From Escherichia coli (GTDB lineage Bacteria > Pseudomonadota > Gammaproteobacteria > Enterobacterales > Enterobacteriaceae): 64,000 nucleotides of DNA. Below, piece after piece: positions 2,709 through 49,640 of this stretch. Every line of letters starts with the position of its first letter. Within the stretch, counting starts at the first letter, position 1. The stretch is taken from assembly GCF_022846255.1 (NCBI RefSeq), contig NZ_AP025682.1; one strand, written 5' to 3'. Under the pieces are notes generated by a model. The model saw nothing but the letters and a program-made list of their open reading frames with translations, had not been told where the DNA came from and ran no database searches. Position numbers and translations under genes: made by a program.

Positions 2709-4250
<1,542 letters not shown>

Positions 4251-4626: not shown

Positions 4627-5172
4627 TTATTTCAGCGTCGGTTTGTCGGTTAAATGGGCGATTTCTCGGGCGAAATTCGCCACCTGCTCCCAATCGGTAT
4701 AGACAACTTCTTTGCGCGTATCCGTTTCACCGCCTGACATCTTCATAATTAACTTGATCATAAAACGGTCGTACCAGCGATAACGTGGGTAACGCAGCGC
4801 CCCGGCAATGACCGCGCAGCGATCGGGACGCCATTGTGAACTCATCAGAAACTTCCGCGCGTAGCTGTTGGTCTGTGGAGTACGCTTCTCAGGTTTACGC
4901 GCCACCAGGTTTACGGAGTAAAAGGCGCTCGGCATCGAATTCAGCCGCGTCGCATGCTTTTTGACAAACTCCTGGAACGCAGAGTGGTAGTGACCATAGC
5001 GAATAGAAGCACCAATGACCACACGGTCGTAGTTTTCCCACTGTGGTTCTTCAATGCGGTGCACATTGGCGACATCCGCCTGGATCCCCAGTTCTTTCAG
5101 TTCCGAAGCCAGGTAGGAGGCAATCTCGCGCGTTTGTCCGTCCCTTGTTGAGAAAAGAATTAATGTTTTCAC
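4627..5172 (-). CDS. hemG: protoporphyrinogen IX dehydrogenase (menaquinone-dependent), flavodoxin-like
   Basis: 181-aa [32 protein letters not shown]... recognised as HemG; position directly upstream of the rrn promoters as in E. coli. Confidence 0.93.
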
Positions 5173-6673: not shown

Positions 6674-7291
6674 TTATTCTTCAATCGCTAACAATTGCAA
6701 TGAACCACGGCTAAAATCCGCCAGCTTTGCGGAAAATTCAGCCACTTTCGCCGCCGGAAGCGCCACCCGCAGCAGAACGAATGCCTGATAATCACTGTTG
6801 ATAATTTTGCCGTCACACTGCCCCAGCAACGCTTCAATGCCGGTTAACTGACTATATTCACATTGCAAAGTATATTCGGTTAATGGTGTCTTGCGTTGGG
6901 TCGTTAGCTGGCGCAGCGCCTGATTCACGCCGCCGCCATACGCTTTCACTAACCCACCGGTGCCCAGCAATATGCCGCCGTAGTAGCGCACCACCACAGC
7001 GGTAATTTCCCCGACGCCGCTGCCCATTAGCTGGGCGAGCATCGGTTTACCTGCCGTTCCCGCCGGCTCCCCGTCGTCAGAGAAACCCAGCTGTTGAGAA
7101 TCATCCGGCGCACCCGCCACCCACGCCACGCAATGGTGGCGGGCATCGGGGTGCTCTGCCCGCACCGATTCAACAAACGCTTTTGCCGCCTCAACGCCAT
7201 CGGTATGCGCCAACAGCGTAATGAAGCGGCTCTTTTTGATCTCTTCAACGACCGTGACCGGTGCCGCAGGAATTAACCAGCTTTCCATCAC
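6674..7291 (-). CDS. yigZ: IMPACT-family protein YigZ
   Basis: 205-aa ORF; 4-nt overlap with the pepQ stop (7288-7291). Confidence 0.9.
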
Positions 7292-8619
7292 GCCAGTTTC
7301 AGATCCCGGGTCATGTTTTCCACGTTGTTTTCGTGAATCACCACGTTGTCTTCGATACGAATGCCGCCGAACGGTTTCAGTGCTTCAATTTTCTGCCAGT
7401 TGAAGTGTTTGCTGAACTGCCCTTCACGCCACGGTGCCAGAAGCGATTCGATGAAGTAGATACCCGGTTCGATGGTTAACACCATGCCCGGCTGGAGAAT
7501 ACGGGTGCAGCGCAGGTACGGATATTTTGCCGGTGCCGCGAGGTGCGTACCGCTATCATCCTGCATAAAACCGGCTACGTCATGCACCTGCAGGCCCAGC
7601 GGATGGCCGATACCGTGCGGCATAAACGGTCCGGTGAGATCGTTTTCGACCATCGCTTCTTCACTCATATCGGTGATGATTTGATGTTTACGCAGCAGTT
7701 TGGCGATGCGCTGATGGAACTGGATGTGGTAATCCACATAGCTGACGCCTGCTTTCATGGTGGCGATCAGCGCAAGTTGCTCATCATTTACGTCTTTCAC
7801 CAGCTGTGCGTAGTCGTTGTCGCTTTTTGCCGACCAGGTACGGGTTAGATCAGCCGCATAGCCGTTATATTCGGCCCCGGCATCCAGCAGGAAGCTGCGC
7901 ATCTCTTCCGGTGCCTGGTGGTCCAGTTTGGTGTAATGCAACACCGCAGCGTGTTCGTTAAGCGCCACAATGTTGCTATAAGGTACGTCGGTATCACGAT
8001 GACCGGTCGCGGTCAGATAGGCAATGTTGATATCGAACTCGCTCATGCCAGAACGGAACGCTTCTTCTGCCGCACGATGACCGTTGACCGCCATTTTCTG
8101 CGCTTCACGCATACAGGCCAGTTCGTACTCGGTTTTGAAGGAGCGATAGTAATGCAGGTAGTCGATCACCCCTTTCGGGTTGATATTGCTGGCCTCAATA
8201 CCCAGTTGCAGCGCACGTTCTGGCACCGGACCGATATAACCGATATTGCCGCGCGCAGCAGGCAACAGACTACCAATGCCATCGGCTTTCGGCAGCGCGA
8301 TCACTTCTACATCTTCAGTCCAGAAGGAGTTCGGCAGCGGTTCGACGTTGTGCCAGTAATCAACCGGCAGATAGAACCACAGTTTCGGCTTATTCACGCC
8401 ATCCACCAGCAGCCAGCAGTTTGGCACCTGAGTTACTGGCACCCACGCTTTGAATTGCGGGTTCACTTTAAACGGATAGGGATGATCGTCGAGAAAAACG
8501 TTGAACAGTTCGCCGGAGTGAATAAGTAACGCATCCAGCCTGAAGCGCGCCAGCGCATCGCGAGTCCGTTCCTGTAAGGTAGCTATATGATTTTTATAGA
8601 GCGAGGCCAGTGATTCCAT
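7288..8619 (-). CDS. pepQ: Xaa-Pro dipeptidase (prolidase)
   Basis: 443-aa ORF with the M24 metallopeptidase HxxE...E pattern; divergent from fadB. Confidence 0.93.
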
Positions 8620-44456: not shown

Positions 44457-45077
44457 ATGACCTTAGAATGGTGGTTTGCCTACCTGCTGACATCGATCAT
44501 TTTAAGCCTGTCGCCAGGCTCTGGCGCAATCAACACCATGACCACCTCGCTCAACCACGGTTATCGCGGCGCGGTGGCGTCTATTGCTGGGCTTCAGACC
44601 GGACTGGCGATTCATATTGTGCTGGTTGGCGTGGGGTTGGGGACGCTATTTTCCCGCTCAGTGATTGCGTTTGAAGTGTTGAAGTGGGCAGGCGCAGCTT
44701 ACTTGATTTGGCTGGGAATACAGCAATGGCGCGCCGCTGGCGCAATTGATCTTAAATCGCTGGCCTCTACTCAATCGCGCCGACATTTGTTCCAGCGCGC
44801 AGTTTTTGTGAATCTCACCAATCCCAAAAGTATTGTGTTTCTGGCGGCGCTATTTCCGCAATTCATCATGCCGCAACAGCCGCAGCTGATGCAGTATATC
44901 GTGCTCGGCGTCACCACTATTGTGGTCGATATTATTGTGATGATCGGTTACGCCACCCTTGCTCAACGGATTGCTCTATGGATTAAAGGACCAAAGCAGA
45001 TGAAGGCGCTGAATAAGATTTTCGGCTCGTTATTTATGCTGGTGGGAGCGCTGTTAGCATCGGCGAGGCATGCTTAA
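44457..45077 (+). CDS. rhtB: homoserine/homoserine lactone efflux protein (LysE/RhtB family)
   Basis: 206-aa membrane [30 protein letters not shown]... Confidence 0.93.
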
Positions 45078-45235
45078 AACTGGAATAAAGCTCACGTAAA
45101 TTAATGTGCCTCGAGAGATTGTTACATCCGCGCTCGAGGCATCTCGTAATAAGCGTAATCTGTTAATTTATTTACTATTTACTTCTCTTTGTTAGTGCCA
45201 GAATGCCGCCATATTTCACCCACGGATGATGAAAA

Positions 45236-46096
45236 ATGACGGAAGCAACGACACCACATGACGCAATCTTTAAGGCTTTTTTATCCCGACCAGAAACGGC
45301 CCGTGACTTTATTGAAATTCATCTGCCGCCTTCTTTAGTTAAACTCTGCAATCTTGATACGCTCCATCTCGAGTCCAGCAGTTTTGTAGAGGAAAACCTA
45401 CGCCAGTATTACAACGACGTACTTTATTCAGTAGAGACGACGAAAGGGTGCGGATATATCTATGTGTTGATTGAGCATCAAAGTTCACCTGATGAAAATA
45501 TGGCGTTCCGTATGCTTCGCTATGCTATTGCCACCATGCAGCGGCATCTTGAAGCGGGACATGATTATCTGCCTCTGGTGATCCCCATTCTTTTTTACCA
45601 GGGAAAGCGTAGCCCATATCCATGGTCAACAAACTGGCTCGATGGTTTTCCGGATCCGGACATTGCACGCGATCTCTATTTCCATGCTTTTCCGCTGGTT
45701 GATATTACGCTAATTCCTGATGACGAAATCATGCAACACCGCAGCATGGCCGCCTTTACGCTGGTACAGAAGCATATCCGTCAACGGGATATGACAACGC
45801 TGTTAGATAAGTTATCCCGCTTAATGATTCTGGGGCAGATGAGCGGACAGCAAATACGCATGTTGATAAACTACATGGCGCTGGTAGGTGAAGCACAGGA
45901 TGTACGAACATTAGTACATGGTCTGGCACAACGAGTGCCTCAACAAGGAGAGGAACTGATGACTTTAGCGGAAGAACTTCGGCGCGATGCCCTTCTCAAT
46001 GTCGCAAAAGCAATGCTACAGCGTGGCTTTGATTTGCAGTTGATTATGGAAATGACCGGGCTTTCTCAGGAAGACCTTTATCAATTGCAATCCTGA
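45236..46096 (+). CDS. Rpn/YhgA-like recombination-promoting nuclease (PD-(D/E)XK, transposase_31 family)
   Basis: 286 aa; N-terminal HDAIFKAFLS...ARDFIEIHLP and D/E-rich core (YNDVLYSVET...YVLIEHQSSPDENMAFRMLRY) typical of Rpn/YhgA proteins; lies between rhtB and rhtC, where K-12 has none as I recall. Confidence 0.8.
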   Translation: MTEATTPHDAIFKAFLSRPETARDFIEIHLPPSLVKLCNLDTLHLESSSFVEENLRQYYNDVLYSVETTKGCGYIYVLIEHQSSPDENMAFRMLRYAIATMQRHLEAGHDYLPLVIPILFYQGKRSPYPWSTNWLDGFPDPDIARDLYFHAFPLVDITLIPDDEIMQHRSMAAFTLVQKHIRQRDMTTLLDKLSRLMILGQMSGQQIRMLINYMALVGEAQDVRTLVHGLAQRVPQQGEELMTLAEELRRDALLNVAKAMLQRGFDLQLIMEMTGLSQEDLYQLQS

Positions 46097-46132
46097 TGTT
46101 ATTCCCCCTGATAGCGTATCAGGGGGAAGTGC

Positions 46133-46753
46133 TTAACGCGAAATAATCAAATGAATGCCAAATCCGGCAAATAACGCCCCGGCAAAACCATCAATCCACT
46201 TCGCCAGACGCTGATAACCACGGCGCATTTGCGGCAGGGCAAACAGGCTGGCAACGACGGTAAACCACGCCAGTGTTTCGACAATAATCAACGCGAAAAT
46301 GCCCCAGCGTTCGGTGGTGCCAACGTTATCGCCGACAAACAGCGAGAATACCGAACCAAAGTAGATAATCGCTTTCGGATTGGCGAGATTGGTCAGTAAG
46401 CCTTTCAGGAAACTGCGCCCGCTTTTTGCCAGCTCAACCTGTGGTGCAGGCGCAGAAACCGCCTCTTTTTTCAGTGCACCGCGTAGCATCTGGTAACCCA
46501 TCCAGCAGAGATACAGGCCACCGCCCACCATAATCAGCGTATGCAGCCAGGCCATTTTTTCGATAATCAAATGCAGGCCAAGCAACGCAATCCCAGCCCA
46601 AACCATTACGCCGCAGGTAATGCCCAGCACGCCCATCATCGCTTCTTTACGGGAACGACTGACAGCGGTCTGAGAGACAAAAAAGAAATCGGGACCGGGG
46701 CTCATAAGCGCCACAATGTGCACCATGGCGACGGTGAGGAATAACATCAACAT
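46133..46753 (-). CDS. rhtC: threonine efflux protein (LysE/RhtB family)
   Basis: 206-aa membrane ORF MLMLFLTVAMVHIVALMSPGPDFFFV... Confidence 0.93.
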   Translation of the reverse strand: MLMLFLTVAMVHIVALMSPGPDFFFVSQTAVSRSRKEAMMGVLGITCGVMVWAGIALLGLHLIIEKMAWLHTLIMVGGGLYLCWMGYQMLRGALKKEAVSAPAPQVELAKSGRSFLKGLLTNLANPKAIIYFGSVFSLFVGDNVGTTERWGIFALIIVETLAWFTVVASLFALPQMRRGYQRLAKWIDGFAGALFAGFGIHLIISR

Positions 46754-46816
46754 ACATTAGACTCGCGGGGGAAACGTTTACGGAGTCTTCATCCTGGCAC
46801 TTTTTTATCCTGCTGA

Positions 46817-48695: not shown

Positions 48696-48770
48696 CGCGA
48701 GAAACTGCAATGCTTTTAGTCTCTGAGAGGGTAATCCTGGATGCTGGATTCCAGATTTGCCAACCATTCA

Positions 48771-49640
48771 TCAAAACAGGTCGTTTAGCATAACTCCCAC
48801 ACCAACGCGGGTCTGGTTGAAGTTATAGTCGATGAGCGATTCGCCGTAACCACTGTAAACCTGAGTATAAAGGCGCACATGTTTGGTGATCGGGTAACTT
48901 AAGCCTAACTCCGCACCACCGTAACCGGTGTTCCAGTTGTACTGCCCTTTCGCGCTCAGTACCGCATCACCGAGGTGATAGCCGATTTTAAGCTGGTAAT
49001 AGCCCATATATTTGGTGATATCCGGGTTATCGTCAGTATTACCCACCACATACCACGGCTTCACCTCTACCAGCCAGTTACCGTTTTCTGCCATCAGGCG
49101 GGTATAAAGGCGGTTCCAGCTGCGGGAAGTCGGGTCAGAACGCCCGTTTGAGTCGTGGTTGTAGCCCATTTCCACATCGCGCAGCGTCCAGCCAGCAAAG
49201 TTGTAATCCGTGGCAAAACCGAGGAACAATTGCGGTTCGTAGTTGGTTTCACGAAACGGTGAAGACTCTTCGCTATTGGACAGTTGCCACCAGGATTTTT
49301 GCGTGTAAGACGCACCCAATACCGAGTTCGGGCCTAAAATCCCACGCCACAGCGGAAATGCCAGGCTCAACTGAAACTTTACTTCATCCTTACGCGCATT
49401 TTCCGCCCAGTCGTAACTGGCAATCGCTTCTTTATTCAGATCGCTGGTTTGGGTGTAGATGATGTAGTTGGTGTCATAAGGATAAAGGGTGAACGGATTG
49501 TCATGCTCCTGCAGCATATTCGCAATAATACTGCCACGCACCGCAGGCGCGTCATGCACCTCTTTTACCGTTGCCTCTTGCGCATACACTGCCATTGGCA
49601 ACATAAACACCGGCAACAACCAGCCCTGCAGAGTCCGCAT
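48771..49640 (-). CDS. pldA: outer membrane phospholipase A (OMPLA)
   Basis: 289-aa ORF with signal peptide and C-terminal F of a beta-barrel. Confidence 0.94.
   Translation of the reverse strand: MRTLQGWLLPVFMLPMAVYAQEATVKEVHDAPAVRGSIIANMLQEHDNPFTLYPYDTNYIIYTQTSDLNKEAIASYDWAENARKDEVKFQLSLAFPLWRGILGPNSVLGASYTQKSWWQLSNSEESSPFRETNYEPQLFLGFATDYNFAGWTLRDVEMGYNHDSNGRSDPTSRSWNRLYTRLMAENGNWLVEVKPWYVVGNTDDNPDITKYMGYYQLKIGYHLGDAVLSAKGQYNWNTGYGGAELGLSYPITKHVRLYTQVYSGYGESLIDYNFNQTRVGVGVMLNDLF

Follow-up and report, generated by a model that had tools for sequence, protein, structure and literature searches.

The window analysed here is a stretch of 64,000 nucleotides (nt) of the Escherichia coli chromosome (contig NZ_AP025682.1), and our subject is a 1055-base-pair (bp) cassette within it that lies between the stop codons of rhtB and rhtC and carries a gene of the Rpn family. 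The gene order, taken from the list of open reading frames (ORFs) and from the annotation of an identical genome, is yigL, pldB, rhtB, cassette, rhtC, recQ; the features of the locus are collected in Table 1. As the strands of the genes make plain, rhtB and rhtC converge tail to tail both in the window and in K-12, and not, as an initial annotation of this DNA had stated, divergently. A single long ORF of 286 amino acids (aa) occupies the cassette, and the same coding sequence in a 100%-identical genome is annotated by RefSeq as 'Rpn family recombination-promoting nuclease/putative transposase' (WP_000133649.1). Alignment with K-12 MG1655 shows only a 61-bp spacer between rhtB and rhtC, containing what we take to be a repetitive extragenic palindromic (REP) element; the 1055-bp stretch is absent. 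This agrees with the initial annotation, which had regarded the gene as an insert relative to K-12 and had named its presence at the K-12 site as the observation that would speak against that view. As argued below, the cassette is an intact paralog that most likely works as the toxin-antitoxin pair published for this family, in which a long protein (RpnL) is blocked by a short one (RpnS) encoded within the same gene.

Table 1. Features of the rhtB-rhtC region, in window coordinates.
Feature	Position	Strand	Basis or remark
rhtB, homoserine/homoserine-lactone exporter	44457..45077	+	Left flank; ORF, RefSeq annotation of identical genome, K-12 counterpart
TGCTTAA direct repeat, left copy	45071..45077	.	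Overlaps rhtB stop codon
Cassette between the rhtB and rhtC stop codons, 1055 bp	45078..46132	+	Replaces the 61-bp REP-containing K-12 spacer
Conserved box TGGAAT-N3-GCTC(A/G)CGTAAA (TGGAAT-N3-GCTCGCAAA)	45081..45100	+	Directly after rhtB stop; 13 orthologous loci
Upstream palindrome TGCCTCGAG-N17-CTCGAGGCA	45107..45141	+	Arms 45107-45115 and 45133-45141; E. coli/E. fergusonii allele only
Conserved block TGCCAGAATGCCGCCA, candidate promoter of the full-length gene	45196..45211	+	Extended -10 (TG, CAGAAT 45199-45204), G+C-rich discriminator
Shine-Dalgarno-like GGATGA for the full-length protein	45224..45229	+	CACGGATGATGAA block kept in all orthologs
rpn gene, full-length 'RpnL', 286 aa; predicted toxic Mg-dependent DNA endonuclease	45236..46096	+	Family matches, residues
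Raised silent-site conservation, codons 199-242	45830..45961	+	Third-position conservation, ten orthologs
Candidate internal promoter: -35 CGGACA (45844-45849), 17-nt spacer, TGa + TAAACT (45864-45872)	45844..45872	+	Conservation
Internal ribosome-binding site AAGGAGAGG	45945..45953	+	5 nt before internal ATG
Predicted internal ORF 'RpnS', Met242 to stop, 45 aa, putative antitoxin	45959..46096	+	Three-helix, helix-turn-helix-like domain
Downstream 12-bp G+C-rich hairpin TTCCCCCTGATA / TATCAGGGGGAA	46102..46128	.	Arms 46102-46113 and 46117-46128; 3-nt loop
TGCTTAA direct repeat, right copy	46130..46136	.	Overlaps rhtC stop codon
rhtC, threonine exporter	46133..46753	-	Right flank; ORF, RefSeq annotation of identical genome

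That the gene belongs to the Rpn family and has kept an intact active site is close to certain. A hidden Markov model search matched residues 6-206 to Pfam PF04754 (Transposase_31; E = 4.3e-82, positions 1-201 of the 203 in the model), and the NCBIfam model for the Rpn family, TIGR01784, returned 180.5 bits against a cutoff of 52.1, as would be expected of the Rpn/YhgA-like PD-(D/E)XK nuclease gene that had been annotated. The NCBIfam equivalog model for RpnA gave 345.8 bits, below its cutoff of 583. In direct alignments the protein is 52, 56, 51 and 52% identical to K-12 RpnA, RpnB, RpnC and RpnE, respectively (RpnD, a pseudogene in MG1655, was left out), and the rhtB-rhtC locus differs from all five K-12 rpn loci; the gene for RpnA (YhgA) is found beside bioH and that for RpnB (YfcI), the closest K-12 paralog, beside hisP. 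Because identity is 51-56%, the equivalog score falls below the cutoff and the locus is a different one, we regard the gene as a further paralog, separate from RpnA, B, C and E. With RpnA and RpnB it shares the architecture of a Transposase_31 nuclease domain followed by a small helical C-terminal domain (for RpnA: PMC5350276, PMC10400941, PDB 7TH0).

In RpnA, D11, D63, E82 and the family-specific Q84 are required, Q84K being an inactivating change (Kingston 2017, PMC5350276), and R94 and the PDDE motif, which includes D165, also matter (PMC5350276). The window protein keeps all of these critical residues, as His8-Asp9, Asp61, Glu80, Gln82, Arg92 and Pro161-Asp162-Asp163-Glu164, so that the catalytic D, D, E.Q, R and PDDE occur in both proteins, and none of these residues varies when K-12 RpnA, B, C and E are aligned with it. 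A signature of the form D...E.K had been expected at the outset; in the Rpn family the catalytic signature is D...E.Q (Kingston 2017, PMC5350276), which is present here as Asp61, Glu80 and Gln82, and a literal reading of the D...E.K test would lead to the gene being wrongly rejected. The protein likewise qualifies as a bearer of the restriction-endonuclease-like (PD-(D/E)XK) fold. Against orthologs in other genera, the ratio of nonsynonymous to synonymous change (dN/dS) over the N-terminal 241 codons is 0.07-0.08, from which we conclude that the gene is under purifying selection. Over the last 33 codons the protein changes about twice as fast as in its N-terminal part.

The idea of a gene within this gene comes from the K-12 paralogs. 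Each K-12 rpn gene also yields a small protein, RpnS, from an internal start, and transcription starts lie inside all of these genes (Zhong 2023, PMC10400941). In sequence, RpnS equals the C-terminal domain of the long protein, whose toxicity it blocks (PMC10400941). The internal start of RpnA is Met244, with a ribosome-binding site at codons 240-241, and purified RpnA-S inhibits the RpnA nuclease in vitro (PMC10400941); RpnB is toxic as well, and its own short protein counteracts it (Zhong 2023, PMC10400941). At the position homologous to Met244, the window gene has an in-frame ATG at codon 242 (45959-45961), and in both genes AAGGAG stands before the internal Met. An internal start is likewise found at the matching place in RpnB. 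Met242 is invariant in 4 K-12 paralogs and 18 orthologs, GGAG is found 8-10 nt upstream of the internal ATG in 7 of 7 loci examined, and the K-12 paralogs read AAGGAGA at the matching position. In Klebsiella the encoded Glu has become Gly and the DNA is still GGAGGA at this site. A sequence search of the PDB gave a single meaningful match, the crystal structure of the RpnA antitoxin (7TH0; E = 0.003, residues 242-282). Residue 1 of 7TH0 aligns with Met242, and the alignment between the last 45 residues of the window protein and the crystallised antitoxin runs from end to end. Precomputed Pfam annotation gives the window protein the domain PF27070 (HTH_Rpn_C), and the AlphaFold2 model of the protein has helices at residues 235-262, 267-274 and 278-285, with values of the predicted local distance difference test of 81-90. 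Compared with RpnA, one four-residue unit is missing from the C-terminal helix. The predicted short product, of 45 aa, is one such unit below that of RpnA, and the short product of RpnB has 53 aa.

Silent sites provide a second line of evidence, since they can reveal constraint that does not act on the protein. The top 25 five-codon windows of third-position conservation all lie in codons 165-242, and every z above 1.5 falls within codons 199-242. For codons of invariant amino acids, third-position identity is 0.77 in codons 199-242 versus 0.49 elsewhere (Mann-Whitney, p = 3.5e-5). Across genera, then, silent-site conservation rises only in the approximately 130 nt before the internal ATG, a pattern that fits what embedded nucleic-acid signals would produce. 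A candidate promoter coincides with the peak of this conservation, and its GGACA and GTA/ATA-AAC-T are kept in all orthologs. We propose cgGACA-N17-TGnTAAACT as an internal promoter, in line with the internal starts of the K-12 rpn genes; it scores 8/12, which is below the threshold of the scan. Ile211 (45866-45868), inside the candidate -10, is specified by the rare codon ATA, and all orthologs have GTA or ATA there. Taken with the 7TH0 alignment and the ribosome-binding site, these sequence features of the window gene fit the published RpnL/RpnS layout, and a functional internal start at Met242 is probable. A search for an in-frame start thus lends good support from sequence to the suggestion, made in the initial annotation, of a toxin with an internally translated antitoxin.

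The domain encoded by the short reading frame is also where members of the family differ in length. Among strains, the C-terminal domain varies by four-residue repeats that begin 8-20 residues past the internal Met (PMC10400941). The orthologs of the window gene have lengths of 286, 290, 294, 298, 302, 306, 310, 314, 322 and 334 aa, in steps of 4, and the alignment traces the differences to runs of four-residue units (EGIQ, QGIQ) that start about 10 residues past Met242. The E. coli allele has no such repeats, and it does not vary in length in the genomes sampled. Between Pseudocitrobacter faecalis and a metagenomic contig that nearly matches it, identity is 99% in the gene and in the flanks, and the proteins are one repeat apart (298 versus 302 aa); the pair differs by one KEGR unit (GRREGRKEGKQ versus GRREGRKEGRKEGKQ), a change of repeat number within a species at this locus.

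The cassette was found in 645 of 5,426 complete E. coli genomes (about 12%, or roughly one in eight), in a single copy each and with an identity of at least 99%, and isolates of the pandemic lineage of sequence type 131 (ST131) are among the carriers. This comparison across strains upholds the expectation that the Rpn gene would be strain-variable. The K-12-type REP junction is present in 4,770 genomes. A 36-bp part of the K-12 spacer recurs in E. coli genomes, the median number of places in a genome being 4 and the maximum 11, and it is this part that we take to match the REP consensus. The REP element and the rpn cassette appear to be alternative occupants of one convergent spacer. About 11 complete E. 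coli genomes have neither the cassette nor the full REP-type junction, and one of the 645 cassette matches is on a record labelled as a plasmid. The K-12 spacer (2879-2939 of the retrieved K-12 locus) contains a perfect 10-bp palindrome, AGACGCGTCT.

Backgrounds of the phylogroup-B2 type include both states, with and without the cassette. Strain LF82 lacks it, yet its RhtB and RhtC proteins are identical to those of carriers, and an alignment of the window with LF82 confines the difference to positions 45074-46132. The near-invariant cassette adjoins at least two E. coli haplotypes of rhtC that are about 4% apart. In E. coli, rhtC is unusually polymorphic: over 46200-46800, 27 of 5,425 genomes are at least 99% identical to the allele of the window and 5,362 are at 95-99%. 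The differences are largely silent, and the RhtC protein of LF82 is the same despite a DNA divergence of about 4%. We considered that the divergent rhtC of the window might be a foreign flank that came with the cassette and rejected this idea, as rhtC is polymorphic across all E. coli and the ST131 cassette adjoins the ordinary B2 allele.

Comparison with other genera bears directly on how the cassette came to be where it is. For all of the closest protein relatives the location is the rhtB-rhtC interval, and the genes around it (pldB and yigL; recQ and pldA) are the same; these relatives occur in Pseudocitrobacter (80% protein identity), Pseudescherichia vulneris (69%), Citrobacter (67-68%), Kluyvera (65-66%), Klebsiella (65%), Enterobacter (63%) and one genome of E. 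fergusonii (99%). Outside Escherichia, these syntenic orthologs have the same rhtB-rpn-rhtC arrangement, with spacers of about 155-165 and 35-44 nt. They resemble the window in having a promoter-proximal motif, an internal start and a hairpin before rhtC, and they differ from it in their protein sequence (63-80% identity), in carrying 1 to 12 four-residue repeats where the window has none and in lacking the upstream palindrome. The word 'inserted', which had been applied to the gene and which suggests a recent arrival at an arbitrary site, is therefore not apt, as diverged orthologs hold the identical position in other genera. In Citrobacter, rpn identities of 96, 89 and 91% track rhtB identities of 95, 87 and 89%; such parallel divergence of gene and flanks indicates vertical descent there. 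Representative genomes of E. albertii, E. whittamii and two further Escherichia species gave paralogs only, at no more than 55%, and the sole Salmonella match, in S. enterica subsp. diarizonae, is a 48% paralog.

A different pattern is seen when the E. coli cassette is compared with that of the one E. fergusonii genome. The cassettes are 99% identical, with a synonymous divergence (dS) of 0.025, whereas rhtB is 91.6% and rhtC 94.2% identical, and the high identity extends from the rhtB stop codon to about 80 bp inside rhtC. Similarly, at the nucleotide level the E. coli gene is 80% identical to that of Pseudocitrobacter and about 70% to those of other genera, with flanks that are equally distant (77-82%). 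These mismatches between cassette and flanks, together with the rhtC haplotypes of E. coli, suggest that the cassette has been exchanged by recombination at a conserved site. The sequences point to a shared, exchangeable locus, with the cassette spreading among E. coli and E. fergusonii by recombination; between these two species it has recently crossed the species boundary. Both gain and loss of the cassette in E. coli are compatible with the data. A precedent exists in rpnC (yadD), which is likewise lodged between two conserved core genes, panC and panD, and for which two independent introductions at that site were inferred (Kingston 2017, PMC5350276). The rhtB-rhtC site shows a comparable mismatch of cassette and flank relationships; the two cases differ in that K-12 carries rpnC, and in that the rhtB-rhtC cassette has a REP element as its alternative. 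The same E. fergusonii record (AP027926.1) has an extra gene of 160 aa with Pfam domain PF24716 (WapI) between recQ and pldA (7481-7963 of the retrieved locus); the window lacks this gene, and the site corresponds to an unalignable stretch around 48736-48835.

The non-coding parts of the cassette were compared in 13 orthologous loci. Three blocks are conserved in the left spacer, namely the box that follows the rhtB stop codon, TGCCAGAATGCCGCCA, and CACGGATGATGAA before the start codon. Of these, TGCCAGAATGCCGCCA is nearly invariant across 7 genera, where most other sequence of this spacer is unalignable, and it lines up with TAGAGT/TAAAGT/TATTGT/TAATGT and CGCG-CAT upstream of K-12 rpnA/D/B/E. 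Our reading of it is a candidate promoter that combines an extended -10 element (TG-n-CAGAAT) and a G+C-rich discriminator. Located between the first and the second of the conserved blocks, the upstream palindrome folds at -16.2 kcal/mol (z = -2.7 versus shuffles). As a family-wide RNA structure it was rejected, since in 7 other loci the corresponding stretch showed no folding advantage over shuffled sequence. The downstream hairpin, which has the stop codons of the convergent genes rpn and rhtC on its two sides, lacks a U-tract on both strands. It folds at -21.8 kcal/mol, with z = -4.0 to -4.4 across strands, and 0-1 of 200 shuffles fold as well. RNAalifold recovered only a 5-bp core from the downstream spacer, the loops being unalignable, and each locus was then folded separately: a strong hairpin precedes rhtC in 13 of 13 orthologous loci, with differing sequences, energies of -12 to -23 kcal/mol and z of -2.7 to -6.8. 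It is best described as a terminator-like element or 3'-end stabiliser for either transcript, and not as a canonical intrinsic terminator. The initial annotation had described the insert as bounded by two palindromes. Both exist, the upstream one at the place given for it (about 45107-45140) and the downstream stem about 5 nt to the right of where it had been put; they are unrelated to each other and are not the boundaries of a mobile element. A permissive Rfam search of 44900-46300 found no RNA family.

With these elements in hand, a mechanism can be outlined for the RpnL/RpnS pair, in which nuclease activity, toxicity, antitoxin action and phage defence are carried over by analogy from the literature on the Rpn family. 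The full-length RpnL would be a Mg-dependent PD-(D/E)XK DNA endonuclease with little sequence specificity, harmful when unchecked. A shorter transcript would arise from the promoter inside the gene, at about 45844-45872, and translation from AAGGAGAGG-ATG (45945-45961) would yield the 45-aa RpnS, with the very sequence of the RpnL C-terminal domain. By pairing with its counterpart in RpnL, this short protein would keep the nuclease switched off. RpnL might be freed when phage infect the cell or under a stress, for example high pH, and cleavage of DNA by the freed protein might limit the spread of phage. The cassette itself would not be self-mobile; it would be one of two occupants of the spacer, rpn or REP, spread by recombination.

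Several observations weigh against this proposal or against parts of it. The GGAG of the internal ribosome-binding site also encodes a conserved Gly-Glu, and protein constraint partly explains its conservation. A consensus promoter and terminator scan of 44900-46300 found no promoter-like site and called neither of the proposed promoters. It is conservation that argues for both. The same scan reported four weak terminator-like sites, all inside coding sequence, and called neither palindrome. A Foldseek comparison of the structure with the PDB gave nothing significant. Among the chromosomal paralogs, RpnE is annotated as inactive. The role in phage defence is the more tentative part, and we hold it to be possible, with the balance somewhat against it. 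The one Rpn protein with demonstrated activity against phage is RpnP2, encoded on a plasmid of E. coli ECOR13; it belongs to the same family and has the same gene-within-gene layout. Our likening to RpnP2 is by description. Among plasmid records, the window protein has relatives of no more than 66% identity, and these records are probably chromosomal. Further, the rhtB-rhtC allele has no repeats and is almost invariant in 645 genomes, which misfits the picture of a hypervariable, phage-driven gene. The neighbours (pldB, rhtB, rhtC and recQ) are housekeeping genes and do not form a defence island. PADLOC v2.0.0 (2023), a version that possibly has no Rpn model, gave no family-level match and one stray match of 14 bits.

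It is necessary to ask whether the cassette might instead be an insertion-sequence-like mobile element ('transposase_31') that transposed into the spacer, with the palindromes or a TGCTTAA repeat marking its ends or a target-site duplication. The name of the Pfam family does say 'putative transposase', presence varies among strains, and TGCTTAA occurs at both junctions. Nevertheless, each of the 645 genomes has exactly one copy at one site, the palindromes are unrelated, a repeat search at the cassette ends gave no terminal inverted repeats and, TGCTTAA aside, no direct repeats of note, and the orthologs at the same site in 7 other genera have no equivalent direct repeat. An 'empty site' allele, ...GGCATGCTTAACGCG..., such as would support transposition, was not seen. 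The vertical descent in Citrobacter, where gene and flanks diverge in step, is also contrary to this explanation, and no autonomous transposition was seen for the rpn family (Zhong 2023, PMC10400941). Because both copies of TGCTTAA consist largely of the rhtB and rhtC stop codons and have no counterpart in other genera, the repeat is probably coincidental and not a target-site duplication. As a whole, these points make a transposed element extremely unlikely. A plasmid or phage vector for the cassette was rejected too, the best plasmid match being 65.6% on chromosomal-looking records and phage matches no more than 53%. At the opposite extreme, the gene might be a remnant, domesticated or in decay, that serves neither as toxin-antitoxin nor in defence; most Escherichia would have lost this ancestral resident of the spacer, and the others would keep it by inertia. 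That the site is common to several genera suggests antiquity, the representatives of E. albertii, E. whittamii, two other Escherichia species and Salmonella diarizonae gave only paralog-level matches (at most 55%), the allele has lost all C-terminal repeats, and in K-12 RpnE is annotated inactive and rpnD is a pseudogene. A remnant would not, however, be expected to have an ORF that is intact and at least 99% identical in 645 genomes, with every catalytic residue present, a dN/dS of 0.07-0.08, a preserved internal start, ribosome-binding site and silent-site constraint, and a recent passage across a species boundary. We consider inertia a very unlikely explanation for this gene.

The remaining alternative concerns not what the gene does but how it travels. 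In a homing-like self-transfer, whole cassettes would be swapped between species by RecA-independent recombination, which the Rpn nuclease would promote at the 3' ends of rhtB and rhtC, both short and highly conserved. Consistent with this, the E. coli and E. fergusonii cassettes are about 1% apart and their flanks 6-8%, the Pseudocitrobacter gene is closer than those of other genera while the flanks are equally distant, and exact matches of 14-20 nt are found at both gene ends across genera. In addition, overexpression of Rpn proteins raises RecA-independent recombination, and repeated entry of rpnC at the panC-panD site has been proposed (Kingston 2017, PMC5350276). Ordinary homologous recombination with later reshuffling of the flanks would yield an identical pattern, however, rhtC is unusually polymorphic in E. 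coli anyway, and RpnA has no site specificity in vitro (PMC5350276). The comparison also depends on a single E. fergusonii genome, and action of the nuclease at the rhtB and rhtC ends is a conjecture. Self-transfer of this kind seems unlikely to us. The related notion that the spacer is a cross-genus 'docking site', with the invariant 3' ends serving as recombination arms and exchange being helped by the encoded nuclease, is distinctly unlikely. If it were true, it would mean homing-like spread of a toxin-antitoxin gene without a transposase, integrase or inverted repeats. We return, then, to an intact RpnL/RpnS-type paralog in an exchangeable spacer as the preferred reading.

Although Rpn proteins are widespread, studies of them have to our knowledge been limited to the five K-12 paralogs and a single plasmid gene. 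The rhtB-rhtC gene is a sixth chromosomal E. coli paralog relative to these five, missing from laboratory strains and present in about 12% of complete genomes. Its assignment to the family was already available through automatic RefSeq annotation and the mechanism is published; what is added is a conserved cross-genus site that alternates with REP, a repeat-free, minimal form of the predicted antitoxin domain, silent-site evidence for embedded expression signals, and the recent transfer between E. coli and E. fergusonii. The present picture of the family is extended by this and not changed. With 45 aa and no repeats, the predicted RpnS shows the proposed antitoxin domain in its smallest natural form and would be a handy test of the part played by the repeat helix in toxin-antitoxin pairing. 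The locus, with the same flanks in many genera and its alternation with REP, offers a clean natural comparison for the movement of non-autonomous defence-type genes.

The left spacer of the cassette may also be compared with the DNA upstream of the K-12 paralogs, where about 150 nt of non-coding sequence is conserved before the start codons of rpnA, B, D and E. These four stretches (3018-3170, 7538-7690 on the minus strand, 6849-7001 and 4755-4907 of the retrieved loci) were set against 45078-45235 of the window. Boxes that resemble 45081-45100, CTCGCAAAG, occur upstream of all four K-12 genes, and in the K-12 DNA TTGCGAGC ... CTCGCAAAG form an inverted pair with a distance of about 65 nt between them. 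The cassette has the promoter-proximal block and several CTCG-containing boxes in common with this K-12 DNA. The conserved upstream boxes could be putative operator sites for the helix-turn-helix-like short protein.

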